64,000 bases of DNA from Lingula anatina (taxonomy: Eukaryota > Animalia > Brachiopoda). Positions within the stretch are counted from its first letter, which is position 1. Each line of letters starts with the position of its first letter. The notes beneath the pieces are model-generated. The model had not been told where the DNA came from. It worked only from the letters and a program-made list of their open reading frames with translations, and searched no databases. The stretch is taken from contig CM120642.1 in NCBI GenBank assembly GCA_051362555.1, positions 12,772,001 to 12,836,000 on the forward strand, written 5' to 3'. This document shows positions 1,634 to 63,689 of this stretch, piece after piece. The translations under genes were made by a program, and so were the position numbers.

Positions 1634-1746
1634 GCTGTCTTTGTTCACAAAAAGCTTGCTTTTCTAACTATGGTTCATAATATTAGTAAATGCATTTCCT
1701 GCATTTTTGGGATTTGTGTATTATACCTTTTGTGTACACTTTTCAG

Positions 1747-8811: not shown

Positions 8812-9420
8812 AGATGGCGCCGCCCTATGGCGACATGATCTGTCGTGTTGTAGTATTACTTGTTATTTTACTTTCAATTTTTAACCGTACTATTGGATAC
8901 ATAACTTATTCAAGAGAGGAGCTGCTAAGGGCCATAAATACTTACATTGAGGGGAGCTATGACATGTTTGGAGGACTAAATCGGGTTGACTTTATTACCA
9001 GTACCGAGTATGAAGATTCAAATACGCGGCGGAAGGGGCGAAAGCGAGGTAAACGAGGTTGACTGAGAGTGTACTAACACAATCTTTCACCGTCTGGTGC
9101 GGTAGTGCTACAGCAGAGGACAAGAATCGCCTCTATCGCGTAGTAAAATTGAATTGAATGTTTGTATACGAGACGAGTGCTCAAGAAAGTGAAGTCAGTC
9201 ACGGGTGACCCTGGTCACCCAGCGAATAGCCTACTTATGCATATGTCATCAAGTCGACTACGGTCATTAAAAGCAACCTCCACGCGCACTAAAATAGTTT
9301 TTATCCATCAGCAGTACGTATTTTTAATGAACAAAATGTATTTTAATAATTCCATTGTATTACATTTTATCGACAGATCATACCAATTTTCATTTTATAC
9401 AAGTATGAATATGACAATAA

Positions 9421-9462
<42 letters not shown>

Positions 9463-9466: not shown

Positions 9467-9560
9467 AGGGGGCACCACCTGTAACTCTCCATCGTCTGTC
9501 CATGGTCTGGCCACCATATCCCACGATGTCCTTTGTTTTCTTGCTGCATATCTCTTGCAG
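9467..9560 (+). CDS. Candidate 94-nt exon upstream of the array (unidentified host gene)
   Basis: tttcag|A GGG GGC...TTG CAG|gtatga; open frame GGTTCNSPSSVHGLATISHDVLCFLAAYLLQ ends in phase 0, compatible with the array exon. No homology recognised. Confidence 0.4.
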
Positions 9561-9751
9561 GTATGAACAGGTAGTCTAAATATCGCTTCATTCAGTTCCA
9601 TGATGTAAAAATGAAAACTCCATGCCAGTAAGAAACATATGCTTCGTATAATCTGTGTAATTTCATGTAAAGGTTATTTAATAATTTTGGCTTTCTACTT
9701 TTTTACTTCTCACCCCAACCCCTGAACCTGCTAAAACTTGAACATAATATA

Positions 9752-12700
9752 TAATCTTGTTTTTCATTTCTTTTTACAGGACAAAGAAGATGATGAGCGA
9801 CCCCAACCGGACATGGACTTCACTCTTGGATCCAAGCTAAGGTTAGTAAATTTTATTTTTTTTGGGGTGGTGGGATGGGTAAATTGAATAAATCTAATCT
9901 CGTTTTTCATTTCTTTTTACAGGACAAAGAAGATGACGAGCGACCCCACCCAGACATGGACTTCACTCTTGGATCCAAGCTAAGGTTAGTAAATTTTATT
10001 TTTTGGGGGTGGTGTGATGGTTAAATTGAAAAAATCTAATCTTGTTTTTCATTTCTTTTTACAGGACAAAGAAGATGACGAGTGACCCCACCCAGACATG
10101 GACTTCACTCTTGGATCCAAGCTAAGGTTAGTAAATTTTAATATTTTGGGGTGGTTTAATGGGTAAATTGAAAAAATCATATCTTCTTTTTAATTTCTTT
10201 TTACAGGACAAAGAAGATGACGAACGACCCTAACCGGACAAGGACTTCACTCTTGGATCCAAGCTAAGGTTAGTAAATTTTATTTTTTTGGGGTGGTGGG
10301 ATGGTTAAATTGAATAAATCTAATATCATTTTTCATTTCTTTTTACAGAACAAAGAAGATGACGAGCGACCCCAAGCGGACATAGACTTCACTCTTGGAT
10401 CCAAGCTAAGGTTAGTAAATTTTATTTTTTTTTGGGGTGGTGGGATGGGTAAATTGAATAAATCTAATCTCGTTTTTCATTTCTTTTTACAGGACAAAGA
10501 AGATGACGAGCGACCCCACCCAGACATGGACTTCACTCTTGGATCCAAGCTAAGGTTAGTAAATTTTATTTTTTGGGGGTGGTGTGATGGTTAAATTGAA
10601 AAAATCTAATCTTGTTTTTCATTTCTTTTTACAGGACAAAGAAGATGAAGAGCGACCCCACCCGGACATCGACTTCACTCTTGGATCCAAGCTAAGGTTA
10701 GTAAATTTTATTTTTTTCGGGTGATGAGATGGGTAATTTGAATAAATCTAATCTAGTTTTTCATTTCTATTTACAGGACAAAGAAGATGATGAGCCACCC
10801 CAACCGGACATTGACTTCACTCTTGGATCCAAGCTAAGGTTAGTAAATTTTATTTTTTTGGGGTGGTGGGATGGTTAAATTGAATAAATCTAATATCATT
10901 TTTCATTTCTTTTTACAGAACAAAGAAGATGACGAGCGACCCCAAGCGGACATAGACTTCACTCTTGGATCCAAGCTAAGGTTAGTAAATTTTATTTTTT
11001 TTTGGGGTGGTGGGATGGGTAAATTGAATAAATCTAATATCGTTTTTCATTTCTTTTTACAGGACAAAGTAGATGACGAGCGACCCCAACCGGACATGGT
11101 CCTCACTATTGGATCCAAGCTAAGGTTAGTAAATTTTATTTTTTTGGGGTGGTGGGATGGGTAAATTGAATAAATCTAATATCATTTTTCATTTCTTTTT
11201 GCAGGACAAAGAAGATGACGAGCGACACCACCCAGACATCGACTCTACTCTTGGATCCAAGCTAAGGTAAGTAAATTTTATTTTTTTGGTGTGGTGGGAT
11301 GGGTAAATTGAATAAATCATATCTTCTTTTTCATTTCTTTTTACAGGACAAAGAAGATGAAGAGCGACCCCACCCGGACATCGACTTCACTCTTGGATCC
11401 AAGCTAAGGTTAGTAAATTTTATTTTTTTCGGGTGATGAGATGGGTAATTTGAATAAATCTAATCTAGTTTTTCATTTCTATTTACAGGACAAAGAAGAT
11501 GATGAGCCACCCCAACCGGACATTGACTTCACTCTTGGATCCAAGCTAAGGTTAGTAAATTTTATTTTTTTGGGGTGGTGGGATGGGTAAATTGAATAAA
11601 TCTAATATCGTTTTTCATTTCTTTTTACAGGACAAAGTAGATGACGAGCGACCCCAACCGGACATGGTCCTCACTATTGGATCCAAGCTAAGGTTAGTAA
11701 ATTTTATTTTTTTGGGGTGATGGGATGGGTAAATTGAATAAATCTAATATCGTTTTTCATTTCTTTTTACAGGACAAAGTAGATGACGAGCGACCCCAAC
11801 CGGACATGGTCCTCACTATTGGATCCAAGCTAAGGTTAGTAAATTTTATTTTTTTGGGGTGGTGGGATGGGTAAATTGAATAAATCTAATCTCGTTTTTC
11901 ATTTCTTTTTACAGGACAAAGAAGATGACGAGCGACCCCACCCAGACATGGACTTCACTCTTGGATCCAAGCTAAGGTTAGTAAATTTTATTTTTTTGGT
12001 GTGGTGGGATGGGTAAATTGAATAAATCTAATCTCGTTTTTCATTTCTTTTTACAGGACAAAGAAGATGACGAGCGACCCCAACCGGACATGGACTTCAC
12101 TCTTGGATCCAAGCTAAGGTTAATAAATTTTTTTTTTTGGGGGTGGTGGGATGGGTAAATTGAATAAATCTAATCTAGTTTTTCGTTTCTTTTTACAGGA
12201 CAAAGAAGATGACAAGCGACACCACCCAGACATCGACTTCACTCTTGGATCCAAGCTGAGGTAAGTAAATTTATTTTTTTGGTGTGGTGGGATGGGTAAA
12301 TTGAATAAATCTAATCTTGTTTTTCATTTCTACTGACAGGACAAAGAAGATGACGAGCGACCCCACCTGGACATGGACTTCACTCTTGGATCCAAGCTAA
12401 GGTAAGTAAATTTTATTTTTTTGGGGTGGTGGGATGGGTAAATTGAATAAATCTAATATCTTTTTTCATTTCTTTTTACAGGACAAAGTAGATGACAAGC
12501 GACCCCAACCGGACATGGACCTCACTATTGGATCCAAGCTAAGGTTAGTAAATTTTATTTTTTTGGGGTGGTGGGATGGGTAAATTGAATAAATCTAATC
12601 TCGTTTTTCATTTCTTTTTACAGGACAAAGAAGATGACATGGACTTCACTCTTGGATCCTAGCTAAGGTTAGTAAATTTTATTTTTTTGGTGTGGTGGGA

Positions 12701-15700
12701 TGGGTAAATTGAATAAATCTAATCTTGTTTTTCATTTCTAATTACAGGACAAAAAAGATGACGAGCGACCCCACCCAGACATCGACTTCACTCTTGGATC
12801 CAAGCTAAGGTAAGTAAATTAATTTTTTTGGTGTGGTGGGATGGGTAAATTGAATAAATCTAATTTTGTTTTTCATTTCTTTTTACAGGACAAAGAAGAT
12901 GACGAGCGACCCCACCTGGACATGGACTTCACTCTTGGATCCAAGCTAAGGTTAGTAAATTTTATTTTTTTGGGGTGGTGGGATGGGTACTTTTAATAAA
13001 TCTAATCTAGTTTTTCATTTCTTTTTACAGGACAAAGAAGATGACGAGTGACCCCAGCCAGACATGGACTTCACTCTTGGATCCAAGCTAAGGTTAGTAA
13101 ATTTTATTTTTTTGATGTGGTGGATTGCGTAAATTGAATAAATCTAATCTTGTTTTTCATTTATTTTTACAGGACAAAGAAGATGACGAGCGACCCCAAC
13201 CGGACATGGACTTCACTCTTGGATCCAAACTAAGGTTAGTAAATTTTATTTTTTTTGATGTGGTGGATTGGGTAAATTGAATAAATCTAATCTTGTTTTT
13301 CATTTCTATTTACAGGACAAAGAAGATGACGAACGACCCCACCTGGACATGGACTTCACTCTTGGATCCAAGCTAAGGTTAGTAAATTTTATTTTTTTGG
13401 TGTGGTGGGATGGGTAAATTGAATAAATCTAATCTAGTTTTTCATTTCTTTTTACAGGACAAAGAAGATGACTAGTGACCCCAGCCAGACATGGACTTCA
13501 CTCTTGGATCCAAGCTAAGGTTAGTAAGTTTTATTTTTTTGATGTGGTGGATTGGGTAAATTGAATAAATCTAATCTTGTTTTTCATTTATTTTTACAGG
13601 ACAAAGAAGATGACGAGCGACCCCAACCGGACATGGACTTCACTCTTGGATCCAAACTAAGGTTAGTAAATTTTATTTTTTGGGGTGGTGGGATGGGTAA
13701 ATTGAATAAATCTAATCTTGTTTTTCATATCTTTTTACAGGACAAAGAAGATGACGAATGACCCGAACCGGACATGGACTTCACTCTTGGATCCAAGCTA
13801 AGGTTAGTAAATTTTATTTTTTTGATGTGGTGGATTGGGTAAATTGAATAAATCTAATCTTGTTTTTCATTTATTTTTACAGGACAAAGAAGATGACGAG
13901 CGACCCCAACCGGACATGGACTTCACTCTTGGATCCAAAGTAAGGTTAGTAAATTTTATTTTTTTTGGGATGGTGGGATGGGTAAATTGAATAAATCTAA
14001 TATCATTTTTCATTTCTTTTTACAGGACAAAGAAGATGACGAGCGACCCCACCTGGACATGGACTTCACTCTTGGATCCAAGCTAAGGTTAGTAAATTTT
14101 ATTTTTTTGGGGTGGTGGGATGGGTAAATTGAATAAATCTAATCTAGTTTTTCGTTTCTTTTTACAGGACAAAGAAGATGACGAGCGACCCCACCCAGAC
14201 ATGGACTTCACTCTTGGATCCTAGCTAAGGTTAGTAAATTTTATTTTTTTGGGGTGGTGGGATGGGTAAATTGAATAAATCTAATCTAGTTTTTCGTTTC
14301 TTTTTACAGGACAAAGAAGATGACGAGCGACCCCACCCAGACATTGACTTCACTCTTGGATCCAAGCTAAGGTTAGTAAATTTTATTTTTTTGGGGTGGT
14401 GGGATGGGTAAATTGAATAAATCTAATCTAGTTTTTCGTTTCTTTTTACAGGACAAAGAAGATGACGAGCGACCCCACCCAGACATCGACTTCACTCTTG
14501 GATCCAAGCTATGGTTAGTAAATTTAATTTTTTTGGGGGTGTTGGGATGGGAAAATGAATAAACCTAATCTCTTTTTTCATTTCTTTTTACAGGACAAAG
14601 AAGATGACGAACGACCCTAACCGGACAAGGACTTCACTCTTGGATCCAAGCTAAGGTTAGTAAATTTTATTTTTTTTGGGATGGTGGGATGGGTAAATTG
14701 AATAAATCTAATATCATTTTTCATTTCTTTTTACAGGACAAAGAAGATGACGAGCGACCCCACCCAGACATCGACTTCACTCTTGGATCCAAGCTAAGGT
14801 AAGTAAATTAATTTTTTTGGTGTGGTGGGATGGGTAAATTGAATAAATCTAATTTTGTTTTTCATTTCTTTTTACAGGACAAAGAAGATGACGAGCGACC
14901 CCACCTGGACATGGACTTCACTCTTGGATCCAAGCTAAGGTTAGTAAATTTTATTTTTTTGGGGTGGTGGGATGGGTACTTTTAATAAATCTAATCTAGT
15001 TTTTCATTTCTTTTTACAGGACAAAGAAGATGACGAGTGACCCCAGCCAGACATGGACTTCACTCTTGGATCCAAGCTAAGGTTAGTAAATTTTATTTTT
15101 TTGATGTGGTGGATTGCGTAAATTGAATAAATCTAATCTTGTTTTTCATTTATTTTTACAGGACAAAGAAGATGACGAGCGACCCCAACCGGACATGGAC
15201 TTCACTCTTGGATCCAAACTAAGGTTAGTAAATTTTATTTTTTTTGATGTGGTGGATTGGGTAAATTGAATAAATCTAATCTTGTTTTTCATTTCTATTT
15301 ACAGGACAAAGAAGATGACGAACGACCCCACCTGGACATGGACTTCACTCTTGGATCCAAGCTAAGGTTAGTAAATTTTATTTTTTTGGTGTGGTGGGAT
15401 GGGTAAATTGAATAAATCTAATCTAGTTTTTCATTTCTTTTTACAGGACAAAGAAGATGACTAGTGACCCCAGCCAGACATGGACTTCACTCTTGGATCC
15501 AAGCTAAGGTTAGTAAGTTTTATTTTTTTGATGTGGTGGATTGGGTAAATTGAATAAATCTAATCTTGTTTTTCATTTATTTTTACAGGACAAAGAAGAT
15601 GACGAGCGACCCCAACCGGACATGGACTTCACTCTTGGATCCAAACTAAGGTTAGTAAATTTTATTTTTTGGGGTGGTGGGATGGGTAAATTGAATAAAT

Positions 15701-18700
15701 CTAATCTTGTTTTTCATATCTTTTTACAGGACAAAGAAGATGACGAATGACCCGAACCGGACATGGACTTCACTCTTGGATCCAAGCTAAGGTTAGTAAA
15801 TTTTATTTTTTTGATGTGGTGGATTGGGTAAATTGAATAAATCTAATCTTGTTTTTCATTTATTTTTACAGGACAAAGAAGATGACGAGCGACCCCAACC
15901 GGACATGGACTTCACTCTTGGATCCAAAGTAAGGTTAGTAAATTTTATTTTTTTGATGTGGTGGATTGGGTAAATTGAATAAATCTAATCTTGTTTTTCA
16001 TTTCTATTTACAGGACAAAGAAGATGACGAACGACCCCACCTGGACATGGACTTCACTCTTGGATCCAAGCTAAGGTTAGTAAATTTTATTTTTTTGGGG
16101 TGGTGGGATGGGTAAATTGAATAAATCTAATTTTGTTTTTCATTTCTTTTTACAGGACAAAGAAGATGACGAGCGACCCCACCTGGACATGGACTTCACT
16201 CTTGGATCCAAGCTAAGGTTAGTAAATTTTATTTTTTTGGGGTGGTGGGATGGGTAATTTTAATAAATCTAATCTAGTTTTTCATTTCTTTTTACAGGAC
16301 AAAGAAGATGACGAGCGACCCCATCCAGACATGGACTTCACTCTTGGATCCAAGCTAAGGTTAGTAAATTTTATTTTTTTGATGTGGTGGATTGGGTAAA
16401 TTGAATAAATCTAATCTTGTTTTTCATTTCTATTTACAGGACAAAGAAGATGACGAGCGACCCCACCTGGACATGGACTTCACTCTTGGATCCAAGCTAA
16501 GGTTAGTAAATTTTATTTTTTTGGTGTGGTGGGATGGGTAAATTGAATAAATCTAATCTAGTTTTTCATTTCTTTTTACAGGACAAAGAAGATGACGAGT
16601 GACCCCAGCCAGACATGGACTTCACTCTTGGATCCAAGCTAAGGTTAGTAAATTTTATTTTTTTGATGTGGTGGATTGGGTAAATTGAATAAATCTAATC
16701 TTGTTTTTCATTTATTTTTACAGGACAAAGAAGATGACGAGCGACCCCAACCGGACATGGACTTCACTCTTGGATCCAAACTAAGGTTAGTAAATTTTAT
16801 TTTTTTTGATGTGGTGGATTGGGTAAATTGAATAAATCTAATCTTGTTTTTCATTTCTATTTACAGGACAAAGAAGATGACGAACGACCCCACCTGGACA
16901 TGGACTTCACTCTTGGATCCAAGCTAAGGTTAGTAAATTTCATTTTTTTGGTGTGGTGGGATGGGTAAATTGAATAAATCTAATCTAGTTTTTCATTTCT
17001 TTTTACAAGACAAAGAAGATGACTAGTGACCCCAGCCAGACATGGACTTCACTCTTGGATCCAAGCTAAGGTTAGTAAATTTTATTTTTTTGATGTGGTG
17101 GATTGGGTAAATTGAATAAATCTAATCTTGTTTTTCATTTATTTTTACAGGACAAAGAAGATGACGAGCGACCCCAACCGGACATGGACTTCACTCTTGG
17201 ATCCAAACTAAGGTTAGTAAATTTTATTTTTTGGGGTGGTGGGATGGGTAAATTGAATAAATCTAATCTTGTTTTTCATATCTTTTTACAGGACAAAGAA
17301 GATGACTAGTGACCCGAACCGGACATGGACTTCACTCTTGGATCCAAGCTAAGGTTAGTAAATTTTATTTTTTTGATGTGGTGGATTGGGTAAATTGAAT
17401 AAATCTAATCTTGTTTTTCATTTATTTTTACAGGACAAAGAAGATGACGAGCGACCCCAACCGGACATGGACTTCACTCTTGGATCCAAAGTAAGGTTAG
17501 TAAATTTTATTTTTTTGATGTGGTGGATTGGGTAAATTGAATAAATCTAATCTTGTTTTTCATTTCTATTTACAGGACAAAGAAGATGACGAACGACCCC
17601 ACCTGGACATGGACTTCACTCTTGGATCCAAGCTAAGGTTAGTAAATTTTATTTTTTTGGGGTGGTGGGATGGGTAAATTGAATAAATCTAATTTTGTTT
17701 TTCATTTCTTTTTACAGGACAAAGAAGATGACGAGCGACCCCACCTGGACATGGACTTCACTCTTGGATCCAAGCTAAGGTTAGTAAATTTTATTTTTTT
17801 GGGGTGTTGGGATGGGTACTTTTAATAAATCTAATCTAGTTTTTCATTTCTATTTACAGGACAAAGAAGATGACGAGCGACCCCACCTGGACATGGACTT
17901 CACTCTTGGATCCAAGCTAAGGTTAGTAAATTTTATTTTTTTGGTGTGGTGGGATGGGTAAATTGAATAAATCTAATCTAGTTTTTCATTTCTTTTTACA
18001 GGACAAAGAAGATGACTAGTGACCCCAGCCAGACATGGACTTCACTCTTGGATCCAAGCTAAGGTTAGTAAATTTTATTTTTTTGATGTGGTGGATTGGG
18101 TAAATTGAATAAATCTAATCTTGTTTTTCATTTATTTTTACAGGACAAAGAAGATGACGAGCGACCCCAACCGGACATGGACTTCACTCTTGGATCCAAA
18201 CTAAGGTTAGTAAATTTTATTTTTTTTGATGTGGTGGATTGGGTAAATTGAATAAATCTAATCTTGTTTTTCATTTCTATTTACAGGACAAAGAAGATGA
18301 CGAACGACCCCACCTGGACATGGACTTCACTCTTGGATCCAAGCTAAGGTTAGTAAATTTTATTTTTTTGGTGTGGTGGGATGGGTAAATTGAATAAATC
18401 TAATCTAGTTTTTCATTTCTTTTTACAGGACAAAGAAGATGACTAGTGACCCCAGCCAGACATGGACTTCACTCTTGGATCCAAGCTAAGGTTAGTAAAT
18501 TTTATTTTTTTGATGTGGTGGATTGGGTAAATTGAATAAATCTAATCTTGTTTTTCATTTATTTTTACAGGACAAAGAAGATGACGAGCGACCCCAACCG
18601 GACATGGACTTCACTCTTGGATCCAAACTAAGGTTAGTAAATTTTATTTTTTGGGGTGGTGGGATGGGTAAATTGAATAAATCTAATCTTGTTTTTCATA

Positions 18701-21700
18701 TCTTTTTACAGGACAAAGAAGATGACTAGTGACCCGAACCGGACATGGACTTCACTCTTGGATCCAAGCTAAGGTTAGTAAATTTTATTTTTTTGATGTG
18801 GTGGATTGGGTAAATTGAATAAATCTAATCTTGTTTTTCATTTATTTTTACAGGACAAAGAAGATGACGAGCGACCCCAACCGGACATGGACTTCACTCT
18901 TGGATCCAAAGTAAGGTTAGTAAATTTTATTTTTTTGATGTGGTGGATTGGGTAAATTGAATAAATCTAATCTTGTTTTTCATTTCTATTTACAGGACAA
19001 AGAAGATGACGAACGACCCCACCTGGACATGGACTTCACTCTTGGATCCAAGCTAAGGTTAGTAAATTTTATTTTTTTGGGGTGGTGGGATGGGTAAATT
19101 GAATAAATCTAATTTTGTTTTTCATTTCTTTTTACAGGACAAAGAAGATGACGAGCGACCCCACCTGGACATGGACTTCACTCTTGGATCCAAGCTAAGG
19201 TTAGTAAATTTTATTTTTTTGGTGTGGTGGGATGGGTAAATTGAATAAATCTAATCTAGTTTTTCGTTTCTTTTTACAGGACAAAGAAGATGACGAGCGA
19301 CCCCACCCAGACATGGACTTCACTCTTGGATCCTAGCTAAGGTTAGTAAATTTTATTTTTTTGGGGTGGTGGGATGGGTAAATTGAATAAATCTAATCTA
19401 GTTTTTCGTTTCTTTTTACAGGACAAAGAAGATGACGAGCGACCCCACCCAGACATTGACTTCACTCTTGGATCCAAGCTAAGGTTAGTAAATTTTATTT
19501 TTTTGGGGTGGTGGGATGGGTAAATTGAATAAATCTAATCTAGTTTTTCGTTTCTTTTTACAGGACAAAGAAGATGACGAGCGACCCCACCCAGACATCG
19601 ACTTCACTCTTGGATCCAAGCTATGGTTAGTAAATTTAATTTTTTTGGGGGTGTTGGGATGGGAAAATGAATAAACCTAATCTCTTTTTTCATTTCTTTT
19701 TACAGGACAAAGAAGATGACGAACGACCCTAACCGGACAAGGACTTCACTCTTGGATCCAAGCTAAGGTTAGTAAATTTTATTTTTTTTGGGATGGTGGG
19801 ATGGGTAAATTGAATAAATCTAATATCATTTTTCATTTCTTTTTACAGGACAAAGAAGATGACGAGCGACCCCACCCAGACATCGACTTCACTCTTGGAT
19901 CCAAGCTAAGGTAAGTAAATTAATTTTTTTGGTGTGGTGGGATGGGTAAATTGAATAAATCTAATTTTGTTTTTCATTTCTTTTTACAGGACAAAGAAGA
20001 TGACGAGCGACCCCACCTGGACATGGACTTCACTCTTGGATCCAAGCTAAGGTTAGTAAATTTTATTTTTTTGGGGTGGTGGGATGGGTACTTTTAATAA
20101 ATCTAATCTAGTTTTTCATTTCTTTTTACAGGACAAAGAAGATGACGAGCGACCCCATCCAGACATGGACTTCACTCTTGGATCCAAGCTAAGGTTAGTA
20201 AATTTTATTTTTTTGATGTGGTGGATTGGGTAAATTGAATAAATCTAATCTTGTTTTTCATTTCTATTTACAGGACAAAGAAGATGACGAGCGACCCCAC
20301 CTGGACATGGACTTCACTCTTGGATCCAAGCTAAGGTTAGTAAATTTTATTTTTTTGGTGTGGTGGGATGGGTAAATTGAATAAATCTAATCTAGTTTTT
20401 CATTTCTTTTTACAGGACAAAGAAGATGACTAGTGACCCCAGCCAGACATGGACTTCACTCTTGGATCCAAGCTAAGGTTAGTAAATTTTATTTTTTTGA
20501 TGTGGTGGATTGGGTAAATTGAATAAATCTAATCTTGTTTTTCATTTATTTTTACAGGACAAAGAAGATGACGAGCGACCCCAACCGGACATGGACTTCA
20601 CTCTTGGATCCAAACTAAGGTTAGTAAATTTTATTTTTTGGGGTGGTGGGATGGGTAAATTGAATAAATCTAATCTTGTTTTTCATATCTTTTTACAGGA
20701 CAAAGAAGATGACTAGTGACCCGAACCGGACATGGACTTCACTCTTGGATCCAAGCTAAGGTTAGTAAATTTTATTTTTTTGATGTGGTGGATTGGGTAA
20801 ATTGAATAAATCTAATCTTGTTTTTCATTTATTTTTACAGGACAAAGAAGATGACGAGCGACCCCAACCGGACATGGACTTCACTCTTGGATCCAAAGTA
20901 AGGTTAGTAAATTTTATTTTTTTGATGTGGTGGATTGGGTAAATTGAATAAATCTAATCTTGTTTTTCATTTCTATTTACAGGACAAAGAAGATGACGAA
21001 CGACCCCACCTGGACATGGACTTCACTCTTGGATCCAAGCTAAGGTTAGTAAATTTTATTTTTTTGGGGTGGTGGGATGGGTAAATTGAATAAATCTAAT
21101 TTTGTTTTTCATTTCTTTTTACAGGACAAAGAAGATGACGAGCGACCCCACCTGGACATGGACTTCACTCTTGGATCCAAGCTAAGGTTAGTAAATTTTA
21201 TTTTTTTGGTGTGGTGGGATGGGTAAATTGAATAAATCTAATCTAGTTTTTCATTTCTTTTTACAGGACAAAGAAGATGACGAGTGACCCCAGCCAGACA
21301 TGGACTTCACTCTTGGATCCAAGCTAAGGTTAGTAAATTTTATTTTTTTGATGTGGTGGATTGGGTAAATTGAATAAATCTAATCTTGTTTTTCATTTAT
21401 TTTTACAGGACAAAGAAGATGACGAGCGACCCCAACCGGACATGGACTTCACTCTTGGATCCAAACTAAGGTTAGTAAATTTTATTTTTTGGGGTGGTGG
21501 GATGGGTAAATTGAATAAATCTAATCTTGTTTTTCATATCTTTTTACAGGACAAAGAAGATGACGAATGACCCGAACCGGACATGGACTTCACTCTTGGA
21601 TCCAAGCTAAGGTTAGTAAATTTTATTTTTTTGATGTGGTGGATTGGGTAAATTGAATAAATCTAATCTTGTTTTTCATTTATTTTTACAGGACAAAGAA

Positions 21701-51700: not shown

Positions 51701-54700
51701 GGTAAATTGAATAAACCTAATCTCTTTTTTCATTTCTTTTTACAGGACAAAGAAGATGACGAACGACCCTAACCGGACAAGGACTTCACTCTTGGATCCA
51801 ACTAAGGTAAGTAAATTTTATTTTTTTGGGGTGGTGGGATGGGTAAATTGAATAAATCTAATCTTCTTTTTCATTTCTTTTTGCAGGACAAAGATGACGA
51901 GCGACCCCAGCCAGACATGGACTTCACTCTTGGATCCAAGCTAAGGTTAGTAAATTTTATTTTTTTGATGTGGTGGATTGAGTAAATTGAATAAATCTAA
52001 TCTTGTTTTTCATTTATTTTTACAGGACAAAGAAGATGACAAGTGACCCCAACCAGACATGGACTTCACTCTTGGATCTAAACTAAGGTTAGTAAATTTT
52101 ATTTTTTGGGGTGGTGGGATGGGTAAATTAAATAAATCTAATCTTGTTTTTTATTTATTTTTACAGGACAAAGAAGATGAAGAGCGACCCCACCCGGACA
52201 TGGACTTCATTCTTGGATCCAAGCTAAGGTTGGTAAATTTTATTTTTTTGGGGTGGTTGGATGGGTAAAAGAATAAACCTAATCTCTTTTTTCATTTCTT
52301 TTTACAGGACAAAGAAGATGACGAACGGCCCAATCTGGACATGGACTTCACTCTTGGATCCAAGCTAAGGTTAGTAAATTTTATTTTTTTAGGGTGGTGG
52401 GATGGGTAAATTGAATAAATCTAATATCATTTTTCATTTCTTTTTACAGGACAAAAAAGATGACAAGCGACCCCACTCAGACATGGACTTCACTCTTGGA
52501 TCCAAGCTAAGGTTAGTAAATTATATTTTTTTGGGGTGGTGGGATGGGTAAATTGAATAAAACTAATCTAGTTTTTCATTTCTATTTACAGGACAAAGAA
52601 GATGACGAGTGACCCCACCTGGACATGGACTTCACTCTTGGATCCAAGCTAAGGTTAGTAAATTTTATATTTTGGGGTGGTGGGATGGGTAAATTGAATA
52701 AATCTAATCTTGTTTTTCATTTCTTTTTACAGGACAAAGATGACGAGCGACCCCAGCCAGACATGGACTTCACTCTTGGATCCAAGCTAAGGTTAGTAAA
52801 TTTTATTTTTTTGATGTGGTGGATTGGGTAAATTGAATAAATCTAATCTTGTTTTTCATTTATTTTTACAGGACAAAGAAGATGACGAGCGACCCCAACC
52901 GGACATGGACTTCACTCTTGGATCTAAACTAAGGTTAGTAAATTTTATTTTTTGGGGTGGTGGGATGGGTAAATTAAATAAATCTAATCTTGTTTTTTAT
53001 TTCTTTTTACAGGACAAAGAAGATGAAGAGCGACCCCACCCGGACATGGACTTCATTCTTGCATCCAAGCTAAGGTTGGTAAATTTTATTTTTTTGGGGT
53101 GGTTGGATGGGTAAAATGAAAAAATCTAATCTTGATTTTCTTTTCTTTTTACAGGACAAAGAAGATGACGAGCGACCCCACCCGGACATGGACTTCACTG
53201 TTGGATCCAAGCTAAGGTTAGTAAATTTTATTTTTTTGGGGGTGTTGGGATGGGTAAATGAATAAACCTAATCTCTTTTTTCATTTCTTTTTACAGGACA
53301 AAGAAGATGACGAACGGCCCAATTTTGACATGGACTTCACTCTTGGATCCAAGCTAAGGTTAGTAAATTTTATTTTTTTGGGGTGGTGCAATGGGTAAAT
53401 TGAATAAATCTAATCTAGTTTTTCATTTTTATTTACAGGACAAAGAAGATGACGAACGGCCCAATCCGGACATGGACTTGACTCTTGGATCCAAGATAAG
53501 GTTAGTAAATTTTATTTTTTTTTGGGATGGTGGGATGGGTACTTTTAATAAATCTAATCTTGTTTTTCATTTCTATTTACAAGACAAAGAAGATGACGAG
53601 CCACCCCAACAGGACATTGACTTCACTCTTGGATTCAAGCTAAGGTTAGTAAATTTGATTTTTTTGTGGTGGTGGGATGGGTAAATTGAATAAATCTAAT
53701 CTTGTTTTTCATTTCTTTTTACAGGACAAAGAAGATGACGAGCGACCCCAACCGGACATGGACTTCACTCTTGGATCCAAGCTAAGGTTAGTAAATTTTA
53801 TTTTTTTGGGGTGGTGGGATGGGTAAATTGAATAAATCTAATATCATTTTTCATTTCTTTTTACATGATAAAGAAGATGACGAGCGACCCCAACCGGACA
53901 TGGACTTCACTCTTGGATCCAAGCTAAGGTTAGTAAATTTTATTTTTTTGGGGTGGTGGGATGGGTAAATTGAATAAATCTAATATCATTTTTCATTTCT
54001 TTTTACAGGACAAAGAAGATGACGAGCGACCCCAACCTGACATGGACTTCACTCTTGGATCCAAGCTAAGGTTAGTAAATTTTATTTTTTTGGGGTGGTG
54101 GGATGGGTAAATTGAATAAATCTAATCTAGTTTTTCTTTTCTATTTACAGGACAAAGAAGATGACGAGCGACCCCACCTGGACATGGACTTCACTCTTGG
54201 ATCCAAGCTAAGGTTAGTAAATTTTATATTTTGGGGTGGTGGGATGGGTAAATTGAATAAATCTAATCTTGTTTTTCATTTCTTTTTACAGGACAAAGAA
54301 GATGACGAGCGACCCCAGCCAGGCATGGACTTCACTCTTGGATCCAAGCTAAGGTTAGTAAATTTTATTTTTTTGATGTGGTGGATTGGGTAAATTGAAT
54401 AAATCTAATCTTGTTTTTCATTTATTTTTTACAGGACAAAAAAGATGACGAGCGACCCCAACCAGACATGGACTTCACTCTTGGATCTAAACTAAGGTTA
54501 GTAAATTTTATTTTTTGGGGTGGTGGGATGGGTAAATTGAATAAATCTAATCTTGTTTTTCATTTCTTTTTACAGGACAAAGAAGATGAAGAGCGACCCC
54601 ACCCGGACATGGACTTCATTCTTGCATCCAAGCTAAGGTTTGTAAATTTTATTTTTTTGGGGTGGTTGGATGGGTAAAAGAATAAACCTAATCTCTTTTT

Positions 54701-57700
54701 TCATTTCTTTTTACAGGACAAAGAAGATGACGAACGGCCCAATCTGGACATGGACTTCACTCTTTGATCCAAGCTAAGGTTAGTAAATTTTATTTTTTTG
54801 GGGTGGTGGGATGGGTAAATTGAATAAATCTAATCTAGTTTTTCTTTTCTATTTACAGGACAAAGAAGATGACGAGCGACCCCACCTGGACATGGACTTC
54901 ACTCTTGGATCCAAGCTAAGGTTAGTAAATTTTATCTTTTTGATGTGGTGGGATGGGTAAATTGAATAAATCTAATATCATTTTTCATTTCTTTTTACAG
55001 GAGAAAGAAGATGACGAGCGACCCCAACCGGACATGGACTTCACTCTTGGATCCAAGCTAAGGTTAGTAAATTTTATTTTTTTGGGGTGGTGGGATGGGT
55101 AAATTGAATAAATCTAATATCATTTTTCATTTCTTTTTACAGGACAAAGAAGATGACGAGCGACCCCAACCTGACATGGACTTCACTCTTGGATCCAAGC
55201 TAAGGTTAGTAAATTATATTTTTTGGGGGTGGTGGGATGGGTAAATTGAATAAAACTAATCTAGTTTTTCATTTCTATTTACAGGACAAAGAAGATGACG
55301 AGCGACCCCACCTGGACATGGACTTCACTCTTGGATCCAAGCTAAGGTTAGTAAATTTTATATTTTGGGGTGGTGGGATGGGTAAATTGAATAAATCTAA
55401 TCTTGTTTTTCATTTCTTTTTACAGGACAAAGATGACGAGCGACCCCAGCCAGACATGGACTTCACTCTTGGATCCAAGCTAAGGTTAGTAAATTTTATT
55501 TTTTTGATGTGGTGGATTGGGTAAATTGAATAAATCTAATCTTGTTTTTCATTTATTTTTACAGGACAAAGAAGATGACGAGCGACCCCAACCGGACATG
55601 GACTTCACTCTTGGATCTAAACTAAGGTTAGTAAATTTTATTTTTTGGGGTGGTGGGATGGGTACTTTTAATAAATCTAATCTTGTTTTTCATTTCTATT
55701 TACAAGACAAAGAAGATGACGAGCCACCCCAACAGGACATTGACTTCACTCTTGGATTCAAGCTAAGGTTAGTAAATTTGATTTTTTTGGGGTGGTGGGA
55801 TGGGTAAATTGAATAAATCTAATCTTGTTTTTCATTTCTTTTTACAGGACAAAGAAGATGACGAGCGACCCCAACCAGACATGGACTTCACTCTTGGATC
55901 CAATCTAAGGTTAGTAAATTTTATTTTTTTGGGGTGGTGGGATGGGTAAATTGAATAAATCTAATATCATTTTTCATTTCTTTTTACAGGATAAAGAAGA
56001 TGACGAGCGACCCCAACCGGATATGGACTTCACTCTTGGATCCAAGCTAAGGTTAGTAAATTTTATTTTTTGGGGATGGTGGGATGGGTAAATTGAATAA
56101 ATCTAATATCATTTTTCATTTCTTTTTACAGCACAAAGAAGATGACGATCGACCCCAACCGGACATGGACTTCACTCTTGGATCCAAGCTAAGGTTAGTA
56201 AATTTTATTTTTTTGGGGTGGTGGGATGGGTAAATTGAATAAATCTAATCTAGTTTTTCATTTTTATTTACAGGACAAAGAAGATGACGAACGACCCCAA
56301 CCTGACATGGACTTCACTCTTGGATCCAAGCTAAGGTTAGTAAATGTTATTTTTTTGGGGTGGTGGGATGGGTAAATTGAATAAATCTAATCTAGTTTTT
56401 CTTTTCTATTTACAGGACAAAGAAGATGACGAGCGACCCCACCTGGACATGGACTTCACTCTTGGATCCAAGCTAAGGTTAGTAAATTTTATATTTTGGG
56501 GTGGTGGGATGGGTAAATTGAATAAATCTAATCTTGTTTTTCATTTCTTTTTACAGGACAAAGAAGATGACGAGCGACCCCAGCCAGGCATGGACTTCAC
56601 TCTTGGATCCAAGCTAAGGTTAGTAAATTTTATTTTTTTGATGTGGTGGATTGGGTAAATTGAATAAATCTAATCTTGTTTTTCATTTATTTTTACAGGA
56701 CAAAGAAGATGACGAGCGACCCCAACCGGACATGGACTTCACTCTTGGATCTAAACTAAGGTTAGTAAATTTTATTTTTTGGGGTGGTGGGATGGGTAAA
56801 TTAAATAAATCTAATCTTGTTTTTTATTTCTTTTTACAGGACAAAGAAGATGAAGAGCGACCCCACCCGGACATGGACTTCATTCTTGCATCTAAGCTAA
56901 GGTTGGTAAATTTTATTTTTTTGGGGTGGTTGGATGGGTAAAATGAAAAAATCTAATCTTGATTTTCTTTTCTTTTTACAGGACAAAGAAGATGACGAGC
57001 GACCCCACCCGGACATGGACTTCACTCTTGGATCCAAGCTAAGGTTAGTAAATTTTATTTTTTTGGGGGTGTTGGGATGGGTAAATGAATAAACCTAATC
57101 TCTTTTTTCATTTCTTTTTACAGGACAAAGAAGATGACGAACGGCCCAATTTTGACATGGACTTCACTCTTGGATCCAAGCTAAGGTTAGTAAATTTTAT
57201 TTTTTTGGTGTGGTGGGATGGGTAAATTGAATAAATCTAATATCATTTTTCATTTCTTTTTACAGGATAAAGAAGATGACGAGCGACCCCAACCGGATAT
57301 GGACTTCACTCTTGGATCCAAGCTAAGGTTAGTAAATTTTATTTTTTGGGGATGGTGGGATGGGTAAATTGAATAAATCTAATATCATTTTTCATTTCTT
57401 TTTACAGCACAAAGAAGATGACGAGCGACCCCAACCGGACATGGACTTCACTCTTGGATCCAAGCTAAGGTTAGTAAATTTTATTTTTTTGGGGTGGTGG
57501 GATGGGTAAATTGAATAAATCTAATATCATTTTTCATTTCTTTTTACAGGATAAAGAAGATGACGAGCGACCCCAACCGGATATGGACTTCACTCTTGGA
57601 TCCAAGCTAAGGTTAGTAAATTTTATATTTTGGGGTGGTGGGATGGGTAAATTGAATAAATCTAATCTAGTTTTTCATTTCTATTTACAGGACAAAGAAG

Positions 57701-60700
57701 ATGACGAGCGACCCCACCTGGACATGGACTTCACTCTTGGATCCAAGCTAAGGTTAGTAAATTTTATATTTTGGGGTGGTGGGATGGGTAAATTGAATAA
57801 ATCTAATCTTGTTTTTCATTTATTTTTACAGGACAAAGAAGATGACGAGCGACCCCAACCGGACATGGACTTCACTCTTGGATCTAAACTAAGGTTAGTA
57901 AATTTTATTTTTTGGGGTGGTGGGATGGGTAAATTAAATAAATCTAATCTTGTTTTTTATTTCTTTTTACAGGACAAAGAAGATGAAGAGCGACCCCACC
58001 CGGACATGGACTTCATTCTTGCATCCAAGCTAAGGTTGGTAAATTTTATTTTTTTGGGGTGGTTGGATGGGTAAAATGAAAAAATCTAATCTTGATTTTC
58101 TTTTCTTTTTACAGGACAAAGAAGATGACGAGCGACCCCACCCGGACATGGACTTCACTCTTGGATCCAAGCTAAGGTTAGTAAATTTTATTTTTTTGGG
58201 GGTGTTGGGATGGGTAAATGAATAAACGTAATCTCTTTTTTCATTTCTTTTTACAGGACAAAGAAGATGACGAACGGCCCAATTTTGACATGGACTTCAC
58301 TCTTGGATCCAAGCTAAGGTTAGTAAATTTTATTTTTTTGGTGTGGTGGGATGGGTAAATTGAATAAATCTAATATCATTTTTCATTTCTTTTCACAGGA
58401 CAAAGAAGATGACGAGCGACCCCAACCGGACATGGACTTCACTCTTGGATCCAAGCTAAGGTTAGTAAATTTTATTTTTTTGGGGTGGTGGGATGGGTAA
58501 ATTGAATAAATCTAATCTAGTTTTTCATTTTTATTTACAGGACAAAGAAGATGACGAACGGCCCAATCCGGACATGGACTTGACTCTTGGATCCAAGATA
58601 AGGTTAGTAAATTTTATTTTTTTTGGGATGGTGGGATGGGTACTTTTAATAAATCTAATCTTGTTTTTCATTTCTATTTACAAGACAAAGAAGATGACGA
58701 GCCACCCCAACAGGACATTGACTTCACTCTTGGATTCAAGCTAAGGTTAGTAAATTTGATTTTTTTGGGGTGGTGGGATGGGTAAATTGAATAAATCTAA
58801 TCTTGTTTTTCATTTCTTTTTACAGGACAAAGAAGATGACGAGCGACCCCAACCAGACATGGACTTCACTCTTGGATCCAAGCTAAGGTTAGTAAATTTT
58901 ATTTTTTTGGGGTGGTGGGATGGGTAAATTGAATAAATCTAATATCATTTTTCATTTCTTTTTACAGGATAAAGAAGATGACGAGCGACCCCAACCGGAT
59001 ATGGACTTCACTCTTGGATCCAAGCTAAGGTTAGTAAATTTTATTTTTTTGGGGTGGTGGGATGGGTAAATTGAATAAATCTAATATCATTTTTCATTTC
59101 TTTTTACAGCACAAAGAAGATGACGAGCGACCCCAACCTGACATGGACTTCACTCTTGGATCCAAGCTAAGGTTAGTAAATTTTATTTTTTGGGGGTGGT
59201 GGGATGGGTAAATTGAATAAATCTAATATCATTTTTCATTTCTTTTTACAGGACAAAGAAGATGACGAGCGACCCCAACCTGACATGGACTTCACTCTTG
59301 GATCCAAGCTAAGGTTAGTAAATTTTATTTTTTTGGGGTGGTGGGATGGGTAAATTGAATAAATCTAATCTAGTTTTTCTTTTCTATTTACAGGACAAAG
59401 AAGATGACGAGCGACCCCACCTGGACATGGACTTCACTCTTGGATCCAAGCTAAGGTTAGTAAATTTTATATTTTGGGGTGGTGGGATGGGTAAATTGAA
59501 TAAATCTAATCTTGTTTTTCATTTCTTTTTACAGGACAAAGAAGATGACGAGCGACCCCAGCCAGGCATGGACTTCACTCTTGGATCCAAGCTAAGGTTA
59601 GTAAATTTTATTTTTTTGATGTGGTGGATTGGGTAAATTGAATAAATCTAATCTTGTTTTTCATTTATTTTTTACAGGAGAAAAAAGATGACGAGCGACC
59701 CCAACCAGACATGGACTTCACTCTTGGATCTAAACTAAGGTTAGTAAATTTTATTTTTTGGGGTGGTGGGATGGGTAAATTGAATAAATCTAATCTTGTT
59801 TTTCATTTCTTTTTACAGGACAAAGAAGATGAAGAGCAACACCACCGGGACATGGACTTCATTCTTGCATCCAAGCTAAGGTTAGTAAATTTTATTTTTT
59901 TGGGGTGGTGGGATGGGTAAATTGAATAAATCTAATCTTGTTTTTCATTTCTTTTTACAGGACAAAGATGACGAGCGACCCCAGCCAGACATGGACTTCA
60001 CTCTTGGATCCAAGCTAAGGTTAGTAAATTTTATTTTTTTGATGTGGTGGATTGGGTAAATTGAATAAATCTAATCTTGTTTTTCATTTATTTTTACAGG
60101 ACAAAGAAGATGACGAGCAACCCCAACCGGACATGGACTTCACTCTTGGATCTAAACTAAGGTTAGTAAATTTTATTTTTTGGGGTGGTGGGATGGGTAA
60201 ATTAAATAAATCTAATCTTGTTTTTTATTTCTTTTTACAGGACAAAGAAGATGAAGAGCGACCCCACCCGGACATGGACTTCATTCTTGCATCCAAGCTA
60301 AGGTTGGTAAATTTTATTTTTTTGGGGTGGTTGGATGGGTAAAATGAAAAAATCTAATCTTGATTTTCTTTTCTTTTTACAGGACAAAGAAGATGACGAG
60401 CGACCCCACCCGGACATGGACTTCACTCTTGGATCCAAGCTAAGGTTAGTAAATTTTATTTTTTTGGGGGTGTTGGGATGGGTAAATGAATAAACCTAAT
60501 CTCTTTTTTCATTTCTTTTTACAGGACAAAGAAGATGACGAACGGCCCAATTTTGACATGGACTTCACTCTTGGATCCAAGCTAAGGTTAGTAAATTTTA
60601 TTTTTTTGGTGTGGTGGGATGGGTAAATTGAATAAATCTAATATCATTTTTCATTTCTTTTCACAGGACAAAGAAGATGACGAGCGACCCCAACCGGACA

Positions 60701-62864
60701 TGGACTTCACTCTTGGATCCAAGCTAAGGTTAGTAAATTTTATTTTTTTGGGGTGGTGGGATGGGTAAATTGAATAAATCTAATCTAGTTTTTCATTTTT
60801 ATTTACAGGACAAAGAAGATGACGAACGGCCCAATCCGGACATGGACTTGACTCTTGGATCCAAGATAAGGTTAGTAAATTTTATTTTTTTTGGGATGGT
60901 GGGATGGGTACTTTTAATAAATCTAATCTTGTTTTTCATTTCTATTTACAAGACAAAGAAGATGACGAGCCACCCCAACAGGACATTGACTTCACTCTTG
61001 GATTCAAGCTAAGGTTAGTAAATTTGATTTTTTTGGGGTGGTGGGATGGGTAAATTGAATAAATCTAATCTTGTTTTTCATTTCTTTTTACAGGACAAAG
61101 AAGATGACGAGCAACCCCAACCAGACATGGACTTCACTCTTGGATCCAAGCTAAGGTTAGTAAATTTTATTTTTTTGGGGTGGTGGGATGGGTAAATTGA
61201 ATAAATCTAATATCATTTTTCATTTCTTTTTACAGGATAAAGAAGATGACGAGCGACCCCAACCGGATATGGACTTCACTCTTGGATCCAAGCTAAGGTT
61301 AGTAAATTTTATTTTTTTGGGGTGGTGGGATGGGTAAATTGAATAAATCTAATATCATTTTTCATTTCTTTTTACAGCACAAAGAAGATGACGAGCGACC
61401 CCAACCTGACATGGACTTCACTCTTGGATCCAAGCTAAGGTTAGTAAATTTTATTTTTTGGGGGTGGTGGGATGGGTAAATTGAATAAATCTAATATCAT
61501 TTTTCATTTCTTTTTACAGGACAAAGAAGATGACGAGCGACCCCAACCTGACATGGACTTCACTCTTGGATCCAAGCTAAGGTTAGTAAATTTTATTTTT
61601 TTGGGGTGGTGGGATGGGTAAATTGAATAAATCTAATCTAGTTTTTCTTTTCTATTTACAGGACAAAGAAGATGACGAGCGACCCCACCTGGACATGGAC
61701 TTCACTCTTGGATCCAAGCTAAGGTTAGTAAATTTTATATTTTGGGGTGGTGGGATGGGTAAATTGAATAAATCTAATCTTGTTTTTCATTTCTTTTTAC
61801 AGGACAAAGAAGATGACGAGCGACCCCAGCCAGGCATGGACTTCACTCTTGGATCCAAGCTAAGGTTAGTAAATTTTATTTTTTTGATGTGGTGGATTGG
61901 GTAAATTGAATAAATCTAATCTTGTTTTTCATTTATTTTTTACAGGAGAAAAAAGATGACGAGCGACCCCAACCAGACATGGACTTCACTCTTGGATCTA
62001 AACTAAGGTTAGTAAATTTTATTTTTTGGGGTGGTGGGATGGGTAAATTGAATAAATCTAATCTTGTTTTTCATTTCTTTTTACAGGACAAAGAAGATGA
62101 AGAGCGACCCCACCCGGACATGGACTTCATTCTTGCATCCAAGCTAAGGTTAGTAAATTTTATTTTTTTGGGGTGGTGGGATGGGTAAATTGAATAAATC
62201 TAATATCATTTTTCATTTCTTTTTACAGGACAAAGAAGATGACAAGCGACCCCACTCAGACATGGACTTCACTCTTGGATCCAAGCTAAGGTTGGTAAAT
62301 TTTATTTTTTTGGGGTGGTGGGATGGGTAAAAGAATAAACCTAATCTCTTTTTTCATTTCTTTTTACAGGACAAAGAAGATGACGAACGGCCCAATCTGG
62401 ACATGGACTTCACTCTTGGATCCAAGCTAAGGTTAGTATATTTTATTTTTTTGGGGTGGTGGGATGGGTAAATTGAATAAATCTAATATCATTTTTCATT
62501 TCTTTTTACAGGACAAAGAAGATGACAAGCGACCCCACTCAGACATGGACTTCACTCTTGGATCCAAGCTAAGGTTAGTAAATTTTATCTTTTTGCTGTG
62601 GTGGGATGGGTAAATTGAATAAATCTAATATCATTTTTCATTTCTTTTTACAGGACAAAGAAGATGACGAGCGACCCCAACCTGACATGGACTTCACTCT
62701 TGGATCCAAGCTAAGGTTAGTAAATTTTATTTTTTTGGGGTGGTGGGATGGGTAAATTGAATAAATCTAATATCATTTTTCATTTCTTTTTACAGGACAA
62801 AGAAGATGACGAGCGACCCCAACCTGACATGGACTTCACTCTTGGATCCAAGCTAAGGTTAGTA
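9752..62864 (+). repeat. ~53-kb tandem array of a ~142-bp unit (about 370-375 copies); each unit is a 62-nt exon-like segment plus an 80-nt intron-like segment
   Basis: Consensus GACAAAGAAGATGACGAGCGACCCCAMCYRGACATGGACTTCACTCTTGGATCCAAGCTAAG gttagtaaattttatttttttggggtggtgggatgggtaaattgaataaatctaatcttgtttttcatttctttttacag. First exon-like copy 9780-9841, last 62796-62857. One BamHI site (GGATCC) in most units. Copy number estimated as span/142. Confidence 0.98.
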
Positions 62865-63689
62865 CGGTAATTCTCCAATCTATACGAACGATTAAAATTA
62901 ATTATTTTTGGAAGATAATCATTTTGTTTGTAAGGCTTGAAATTCAGTCTGCTAAAAATTGCCACGCGTTCGTATCAATTGAAATACGGATGGAATACGG
63001 CTGTACCTGAAGTTATTTCCACTTACCTACATTGCTAAGTGTAAGCATTACTTTCAGATTAAATCACTGTGATCAGCTAAAAGCACAAACAAATTATTCT
63101 TGCAATATTGCAATGAATTAAAACAAACTAAACAAAAGTCGGGAATTCAAGTTAAAAAACAATTTCTTCATACTAAAGAGGTACATTTCTCCCAAGACAA
63201 GACAACATCGTTTTTCCCTGTTATGTTTTACCAAAACAGGACAACATCGTTTTTCCCAACTTCTGTCAAAAACAGACACGAATATTTTCGTATCCAGTTG
63301 CATATTTTATTTATTGCATGTTTACTTTTAATATGATTTCACATATAGAAAATTTGCAATATTAATAATGTCACCCCCCCCCCCCATTAGGCCTAAATAA
63401 ATTTCTCCCGCCAAAACAAAATACTTGAAACTCCTCAGTAGATATCACTGACGTTAATAGAGATTATACTTGATATAAAAAAATAACATCAGCTCAATTC
63501 AAGTCTATTTATGAAAGTCTTATACAGCATATTAATTTGCACGCAATCAATGTAAACTTAATTAGAAAAAATACAGAAAACTGCAGGCAAATTTGTATAA
63601 GGTCATACGGCACCTTTATTTTTCACAATCACTAATATCAGTAAGGTTTACCTAATAGTTGTTCATGAGACAAGGTCTTTAACAAGGAA

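Follow-up and report, generated by a model that had tools for sequence, protein, structure and literature searches.

Several known systems share one or more features with the locus analysed here. Satellite DNA with higher-order repeats has monomers of a similar size and displays block duplications and lineage-specific homogenisation. The mutually exclusive exon clusters of Dscam1 consist of many related exons in tandem, and titin, with 363 exons, has fewer than the 375 reported below. Among non-coding RNAs, the mammalian FIRRE is spliced from exons that are copies of one local repeat homogenised within lineages. According to one report, this repeat (RRD) makes up 7 of the 13 human exons and 11 of the 23 mouse exons, and nuclear retention and hnRNPU binding have been shown for it (PMC4820808). 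The mucin genes SmPoMuc of Schistosoma mansoni carry a tandem unit made of an exon and an intron, described as a unit of about 1 kb that includes an in-frame 27-bp exon, reaches about 20 copies in the genome at most and codes for protein; its introns are more than 94% identical and truncated family members exist (PMC2576457). SNHG14 has very many exons, given as 148 in human and 172 in mouse (PMC9858946), and tandem exon-intron units yielding a non-coding spliced product; its locus extends over about 1 Mb and its introns carry SNORD115/116.

The locus considered here lies in the brachiopod Lingula anatina, within a window of 64,000 nucleotides, i.e. the whole stretch of DNA that was analysed and to which all positions refer. 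It differs from FIRRE, to which a likeness is drawn without any claim of homology, in that its 375 exons are all one repeat and the intron is included in the 142-bp monomer. Compared with SmPoMuc, the best model for its inferred ancestor, it has a much shorter unit (142 bp), 375 copies and a broken frame. Unlike SNHG14, no small RNA was found in its 80-nt intron. It also departs from other satellites by a monomer that is a working exon-intron cassette whose splice positions are the least mutated, and from Dscam1 by units that join each other, without protein constraint and without constant flanking exons. Among the papers listed on Lingula repeats, mucins and lncRNAs, exon-intron satellites and invertebrate repeat lncRNAs, for the most part outside the subscription literature, none describes the array in its title or abstract opening.

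The array is a single 142-bp tandem repeat at 9744..62864 (374.7 copies, 91% matches; Tandem Repeats Finder). On the + strand, it reads as 375 exons and 374 introns arranged in higher-order blocks, each unit comprising a 62-nt exon and a GT-AG intron of about 80 nt; 375 donors were counted. The exon is 62 nt long in 357 of the 375 copies (356 aligned units plus copy 1), 59 nt in 12, 61 nt in five and 44 nt in one, and the introns span 79–82 nt. This bears out the monomer of a 62-nt exon and an 80-nt intron proposed by an earlier note on this DNA, which also gave correctly the end at 62864 and the number of about 375 copies but placed the start at 9752 instead of 9744. At the left edge, homology to the unit begins at 9744, equivalent to position 46 of the unit intron (blastn of the unit against the left flank), and the acceptor region of copy 1 (9744..9779, +), with its branch region, pyrimidine tract and CAG, precedes the 62-nt exon copy 1 (9780..9841, +). 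The latter is supported by a read joint going back 62 and has TAA at its end in the inferred ancestral frame. The sequence of the 81-nt intron copy 1 (9842..9922, +) displays a GTTAGT donor, a T-run, G-runs, a pyrimidine tract and CAG, with AATAAA at 9887-9892 and TCTAAT at 9893-9898. At the right edge, the last 62-nt exon copy (62796..62857, +), also delimited by a read joint going back 62, is followed by a last donor of which only 7 nt of intron are left (62858..62864, +). An identical twin is present for 303 of the 374 units, with block spacings of, for example, 4, 6, 12, 20, 71 and 82 units. By its long head-to-tail arrangement, its higher-order blocks and its homogenisation, the array is thus satellite DNA.

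Splice sites and divergence were counted on an alignment of 374 intron-plus-exon units. The donor GT is invariant (374/374) and the acceptor AG is retained in 368 units, six acceptors being broken (in the introns that begin at 16929, 53501, 53787, 55627, 58603 and 60871); the base at donor +3 is T, A or C in 346, 20 and 8 units. Within TCTAAT, the branch-point A at 9897 is 25 nt away from the last intron base at 9922, in agreement with the distance of about 25 nt from the AG put forward earlier. Splice signals had been announced in every unit; they are indeed present, but the full U2-type set (GT, AG and the T-n-A branch core) is kept in 366 of the 374 introns, not in all. The motifs are strand-biased: AG/GTnRG occurs 362 times on the + strand against 95 on the - strand, and a pyrimidine tract followed by YAG 368 times against 80. 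Intron position 37 offers a cryptic donor, with GT in 364 of 374 units, which is unused among the joints listed. A 66-nt in-frame exon ending at the second GT (+5/+6) was rejected, the reads giving a 62-nt step only.

RNA reads came from six of the nine runs offered by species label, 6-26% of each being covered. The earlier note had suggested looking for junctions from unit to unit and from an upstream exon, with its donor at 9560, to unit 1. The former exist: joints from exon end to exon start, with a 62-nt step on the + strand, occur at low depth in three of the six runs (X1, X2 and X3, all from study P1), and none was seen in X4, X7 and X8. Copy 1 collects 7 reads from X1 and 2 from X2, plus 4 X1 reads from a diverged exon, and the last copy 1, 2 and 4 reads from X1, X2 and X3, together with 8, 3 and 5 loose ends whose sequence continues into the next exon; these counts are not additive, as X1 and X2 reads recur between both mappings. 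The first mate is always on the - strand, which places the RNA on the + strand, as calibrated with a minus-strand gene in the same runs. Since the reads join exactly at the predicted borders, the observation goes beyond chance. It also establishes that the canonical U2-type signals recognised from the sequence are real and used at these borders in homologous units. Exon-to-exon splicing persists in a diverged 62-nt variant with 7 differences over 30 letters, so the broken form of the exon is not a one-off.

The reads contain diverged relatives of the unit that are absent from the window. T at exon position 15 is found in 27 of 28 X1 reads against 3 of the 375 window copies, and T at position 23 in 14 of 29 reads against none of 374; furthermore, the read flanks differ from the window array at many fixed sites. 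Therefore, splicing is demonstrated for homologous units in other animals and not for the window array itself. Unspliced unit-to-unit joints are equally common (20 reads, 7 of them on the opposite strand), and summed read depth reaches about 30 at best, which for 375 copies would make less than 0.1 each. In these short reads, no first or last exon of the transcript was found and no joint leads to any flank exon.

These data bear on a reading in which the array is a neutral exon-derived satellite, silent or transcribed as a read-through by-product. The spliced reads would then come from smaller related loci elsewhere, and the youth and homogenisation of the array would explain why the signals survive. 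This neutral reading is rather unlikely, even though it agrees with the alleles absent from the window array, with the very low read depth, with the lack of a detected promoter or end exons and with an exon content that evolves without constraint. The surroundings also fit it, with a decayed gene fragment, a remnant resembling a LINE and an element resembling a MITE around the array. On the left side, a WDR55 gene (310..3326, +; seven tblastn pieces), identical to P0001 over 84 aa against 74% for the next best protein, places the window in Lingula anatina. Between this gene and the array, a repeated element (8810..9462, +) carries an (ATT)14 tail along with a short ORF; it has loose-ended reads at 9060, 9148 and 9212 and no Pfam match and is probably the remnant of a LINE. 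To its right, the array stops at a small repeated MITE-like element with imperfect inverted ends (62864..62990, no strand assigned), whose 15-nt arms (62876-62890 and 62967-62981) are 87% complementary; reads from other places join at 62863 (X1, X3). No Pfam family was found for the seven ORFs tested, and no homologue for the minus-strand ORF 6590-6901.

What argues against neutrality is the behaviour of the core splice positions. Nine positions picked from the canonical consensus were compared with base-matched columns. They have undergone 5 parsimony changes, against 16.7-24.4 expected (P 0.0007-0.005), and carry 4 derived alleles, against 9.1-10.5 expected (P 0.003-0.016). The deficit persists without CpG, run and high-frequency columns (P 0.005-0.016). 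When the nine-position pattern is slid round the unit, the real placement ranks 3 of 142. Of the 55 G/C columns only 7 are invariant, donor -1, donor +1 and acceptor -3 among them. The constraint is nevertheless modest: GT-AG alone gives P 0.05-0.12, the choice of the other A as branch point raises P to 0.007-0.06, and the pyrimidine tract is conserved no more than the rest of the unit. Outside the core positions, exon and intron have diverged to the same degree (7.35% each).

The exons themselves do not keep a reading frame as those of SmPoMuc do: 369 of the 374 aligned exons have a length of 3n+2 and the other five of 3n+1. Stops occur in 88, 363 and 374 of the 374 copies in the three frames, the value of 363 being that of the inferred ancestral frame. 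The joined exons amount to 23,191 nt with a longest stop-free stretch of 96 codons. A fully spliced RNA of the array is therefore without coding capacity for a long protein, as for FIRRE. One frame is open in 286 of the 374 copies and double inclusion of a 62-nt exon would cause a frameshift, two features in line with a Dscam-like bank of mutually exclusive coding exons. This reading is, however, largely refuted. Units are joined to each other in the reads, no constant exon is seen behind a donor, and the array terminates in a repeated element. Synonymous and non-synonymous changes are inseparable in all three frames (16/37 versus 43/137, 18/39 versus 39/125, 13/42 versus 44/119), so that no protein-level constraint on the variants appears. 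Pairing of one upstream intron with one unit intron, as for a docking site, reached -31.1 against -28.3 +/- 3.6 for shuffles, a value attained by 64 of 300 shuffles.

The introns were also considered as a source of small RNAs (snoRNA or mirtron, in an SNHG14-like host gene) or the exons as a source of circular RNA. Both ideas would suit the repeated exon-intron build with its preserved splice sites and, with a single unit as mapping target, a joint going back 62 is indistinguishable from a one-exon circle. They are very improbable in view of the spliced joints, which come from poly(A)-selected runs, and of an intron interior that is not more conserved than the exon. Moreover, Rfam on 6000-12000 gave two matches far below threshold (24 versus 47.3 bits, E 0.54), and the two introns folded, out of 374, were not more stable than shuffled sequences (z 0.28 and 0.25). 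The snoRNA, mirtron and docking-site ideas were rejected on these sub-threshold Rfam scores and shuffle-level folding and pairing.

The origin of the unit can be approached through loose read ends located behind 62809, behind 62815 and before 62795 (7, 4 and 6 reads). Read by hand, these rows have phase 2 as their sole open frame across the splice junction; its translation abounds in Ser, Thr and Ala, and the rows differ from each other by Ser/Thr exchanges. They have 7- and 10-nt blocks in common with the 3' half of the unit and sum to 63 nt, a length assembled from consensus rows of 30 nt (agreement 0.76-0.79), which may stem from different molecules. Related exons elsewhere thus suggest a 63-nt mucin-like ancestor and, being present in the species, fit the earlier proposal that the array arose from one gene exon and its intron. 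A protein holding the exon was not found with first-frame queries, as distinct from the phase-2 frame: one of 53 aa was compared with proteins of 96-2000 aa, and one of 30 aa gave no match at E 0.001. In passages of the Lingula genome paper, mucin is listed only as mantle-expressed, with no mucin expansion.

Six X1 reads join the 3' end of an open-frame relative to a unit-like exon start. They raise the idea that a coding mucin-like gene has the array as its giant 3' tail, rich in introns: in-frame upstream exons would lead to copy 1, translation would stop there and the remaining exons, untranslated, may tune mRNA decay or length. A candidate upstream exon with AG..GT borders (9467..9560, +) is open and ends in phase 2, fitting the ancestral frame. 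AATAAA is present in 365 of the 374 introns, so transcripts could end in any unit. This scenario is nonetheless improbable: the left flank of the window contains no related exon, no joint from 9560 to unit 1 was seen in four runs, where the depth of the candidate exon is at most 2, and the exon downstream of the open-frame junction may itself be a coding relative.

Given the structure, the splice signals, the splicing of homologous units and the absence of a long reading frame, the array is, with moderate confidence, a frame-broken mucin-like coding exon amplified into a + strand non-coding repeat RNA spliced exon to exon. The ancestor would have been an in-frame 63-nt exon in a mucin-like repeat gene rich in Ser/Thr, and this exon likely underwent a net loss of one base and acquired a stop; judging from the loose read ends, related exons would form a family that is still open as protein across the splice junction. 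The broken exon-intron cassette may then have multiplied in the fashion of a satellite, by unequal crossing-over and block duplication. The feature preserved would be the ability to splice and not the content of the exon, so that the product would be a low-abundance, partly spliced RNA that would stay nuclear or be cleared by nonsense-mediated decay. A stronger version, in which the whole array forms one transcription unit with most of its 374 introns spliced, appears unlikely; it would yield a 23-kb non-coding RNA of 375 exons, born from a mucin-like coding exon and retained for the sake of being spliced, for instance to serve as a nuclear scaffold that carries splicing and exon-junction proteins. 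Globally, the earlier note's many-exon non-coding RNA and exon-derived satellite both remain, whereas its alternative-exon bank is unsupported, since units splice mutually, no constant downstream exon was seen and no frame displays protein-level constraint.

In Lingula, satellite and gene are one object in this array, and repeat masking can conceal transcribed, spliced loci. Should the array prove silent, it would remain a clear case in which an exon-intron cassette gave rise to a satellite. If it is spliced like its relatives, it would reveal a direct route by which a repeated coding exon becomes a non-coding RNA built from repeats. Its 374 introns of 80 nt, almost identical and naturally varied by single changes at donor, branch point and acceptor, would then be a ready test set for splice-site rules in a spiralian.

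The array is a real feature. Tandem Repeats Finder delimits a single 142-bp tandem array at 9744-62864 (374.7 copies, 91% matches), and therefore not from 9752, where the earlier note had placed its start. The repeated exon-intron cassette that this note described is confirmed, with 375 donors in a fuzzy scan, but its claim that every unit carries all the splice signals has to be reduced to 366 of 374 units with GT, AG and branch-point A intact. In the alignment of 374 intron+exon units, the GT is kept in all 374, the AG in 368 (six acceptors are broken) and the branch-point A, 25 nt upstream of the intron end, is invariant. Exons measure 62 nt in 357 of the 375 copies, 59 nt in 12, 61 nt in 5 and 44 nt in 1; introns range from 79 to 82 nt, and the splice signals are biased to one strand. 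On the left, the array opens within copy 1's acceptor region; on the right, it breaks off after 7 nt of the last intron, where a small repeated element with imperfect inverted ends lies. As an identical copy of 303 of the 374 units exists at spacings that recur, block duplication is visible as the mode of amplification.

The exon lengths are never a multiple of three, and a stop is present in 88, 363 and 374 of the 374 copies in the three frames. None of the three frames sets synonymous apart from non-synonymous changes, and divergence is the same in exon and intron (7.35%). The longest stop-free stretch of all array exons joined (23,191 nt) is 96 codons, and two protein searches with the exon translation, in the first frame only, gave no match. 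Selection was assessed at nine consensus splice positions (exon -2 and -1; intron +1, +2 and +5; branch A; -3, -2 and -1). From base-matched columns, 24.4 parsimony changes would be expected here, or 16.7 once CpG, run and high-frequency columns are dropped, and the nine positions show 5 (P 0.0007 to 0.005), counted on a tree, which fits an array with a history of conversion only imperfectly. They also carry 4 distinct alleles versus 10.5 to 9.1 expected (P 0.003 to 0.016), and the nine-position pattern ranks 3 of 142 when slid round the unit. The GT-AG positions alone give P 0.05-0.12, and the pyrimidine tract is without protection. Altogether, there is moderate evidence that splicing ability is kept and exon content is not.

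Six of the nine RNA read runs under the species label (X1, X2, X3, X4, X7 and X8) were placed on stretches containing a single unit, so that reads from all units collapse on one. On 7120-9921, 7 reads of X1 and 2 of X2, and none of X4 and X7, join the exon end to the exon start 62 nt back; 4 further X1 reads do so from an exon end that has diverged. On 62716-64000, this joint is supported by 1 read of X1, 2 of X2 and 4 of X3 and by none of X8; loose ends whose sequence is that of the following exon bring in 8, 3 and 5 more reads, respectively. The unit-to-unit junctions that the earlier note proposed to look for thus exist in three runs, in reads from other haplotypes. In every spliced joint, the first mate maps to the minus strand, which places the RNA on the plus strand, as calibrated by a gene on the minus strand in these runs (depth 446 vs 2.4 in X1). 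Furthermore, there are 20 unspliced 142-nt unit joints, of which 7 lie on the opposite strand, and loose ends continuing into the intron (6 in X2, 8 in X3). Summed depth over the unit is ~30 at most, and the runs showing splicing all come from one study. An alternative-exon bank, also put forward in that note, can hardly be entertained, since the units join one another and display neither protein constraint nor docking pairing. That the array serves as a small-RNA host or circle source finds no support in Rfam or folding and is very unlikely.

Almost every intron also carries AATAAA with a U-rich tract behind it (365 of 374 introns, at window 9887-9892 in the first), which may act as a poly(A) site in competition with splicing. 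In most unspliced reads across this site (8/8 in X1), AAAAAA replaces AATAAA, a variant that 9 of the 374 window copies share.

At exon position 15, T stands in 27 of 28 X1 reads vs 3 of 375 window copies. These three, namely copy 1 and two units whose introns begin at 10697 and 11409, all lie at the left edge, as if this edge (window 9780-11550) kept an older state sharing the reads' common allele. At position 23, 14 of 29 reads but 0 of 374 window copies have T, and many fixed flank sites also differ. The spliced reads are therefore not from this haplotype. According to PMC13425148, strongly diverged populations go under the name Lingula anatina. Given these populations and the differing alleles, the reads prove tandem splicing of this unit type in other animals, whose copy number they do not give; splicing of the window array itself is putative. 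A neutral satellite, whose spliced relatives would be located elsewhere, is a possible, if less likely, explanation.

Some reads bear on the origin of the unit. Those matching the acceptor and the first 14-20 exon letters before diverging number 7 in X1, 4 in X3 and 3 in X2, and 6 X1 reads splice a different exon end to the exon start. Read by hand, only one frame runs open through this junction, namely that in which a codon is completed by the first G. Translated in this phase-2 frame, the variants are Ser/Thr/Ala-rich and Ser/Thr exchanges set them apart, while translation in the first frame puts radical changes between them. A 7-nt and a 10-nt block of the other exon end recur in the 3' half of the unit. 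Set codon by codon, the variant pieces total a 63-nt phase-2 exon, relative to which the unit has a ~7-nt gain and an 8-nt loss that bring TAA into its exon. This comparison points to a low-complexity, mucin-like repeat gene as the probable ancestor, as read from 30-letter consensus rows (agreement 0.76-0.79) possibly derived from different molecules. Low complexity and a high content of Ser/Thr, besides other residues, are frequent in the shell proteins specific to Lingula (PMC13425148). We lean towards an exon-intron cassette that would have lost its reading frame before being amplified into the array, yielding a spliced, non-coding RNA of low abundance, likely nuclear or decay-prone; end-to-end transcription of the array and any function are putative.

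To the left, the gene at 310-3326 includes an 84-residue piece 100% identical to Lingula anatina WDR55 (next best 74%), its whole last exon being 98% identical. The interval from WDR55 to the array holds a repeat of 160-bp period, exon pieces on the minus strand and what is likely the remnant of a LINE. The repeat (5760-6374; 3.8 copies, 82% matches) presumably resembles internal arrays of Helitron-type elements. The exon pieces (6590-6902, 7325-7422 and 7924-8102, minus strand), for which no homologue or Pfam family was found, have a read depth of ~450 in X1 and X2, with splicing from 7924 to 7422. As the reads show two indels relative to these pieces, one of 4 bases and one of 1 base, and exit at 7325, where there is no donor, into exons that the window lacks, this copy seems to be a decayed duplicate of a gene with high expression in the X1 and X2 samples. 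The repeated element at 8810-9462, with a CAAGATGGCG motif and an 82-codon ORF at its start and (ATT)14 at its end, is likely an internally deleted LINE. It could provide a plus-strand promoter; read depth at 8812-8905 is 0 in 4/4 runs. A candidate upstream exon follows (9467-9560, plus strand), and the runs examined contain no joint between the array and its donor end, 9560, or the right flank, so that the upstream exon-to-unit junction suggested earlier was not recovered. It is unlikely that the array is the untranslated tail of a coding gene. In the upstream intron, CACCCCAA (window 9711-9718) is complementary to TTGGGGTG of the unit intron; whole-intron pairing between the two is not better than in shuffles. 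To the right, 62890-64000 shows unbroken depth of ~5-20 on both strands in X1, X2 and X3 and near 0 in X8, with no splice joints in these four runs, which may reflect repeated DNA or overlapping untranslated transcription.

Likenesses to known systems are partial. In the lncRNA FIRRE, one local repeat makes 7 of 13 human exons (PMC4820808), and the array is also built of repeat exons; with SNHG14 and its 148 exons (PMC9858946), it shares a many-exon build. The polymorphic mucins of Schistosoma mansoni (SmPoMuc), with a 1-kb exon+intron unit repeated up to ~20 times (PMC2576457), share their build with the likely ancestor of the array. The array belongs to none of these kinds, as it has no small RNA and no kept frame and any nuclear role is putative. 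No published description of it was found within the literature open to search, and it stands out for its scale and its traceable coding origin.
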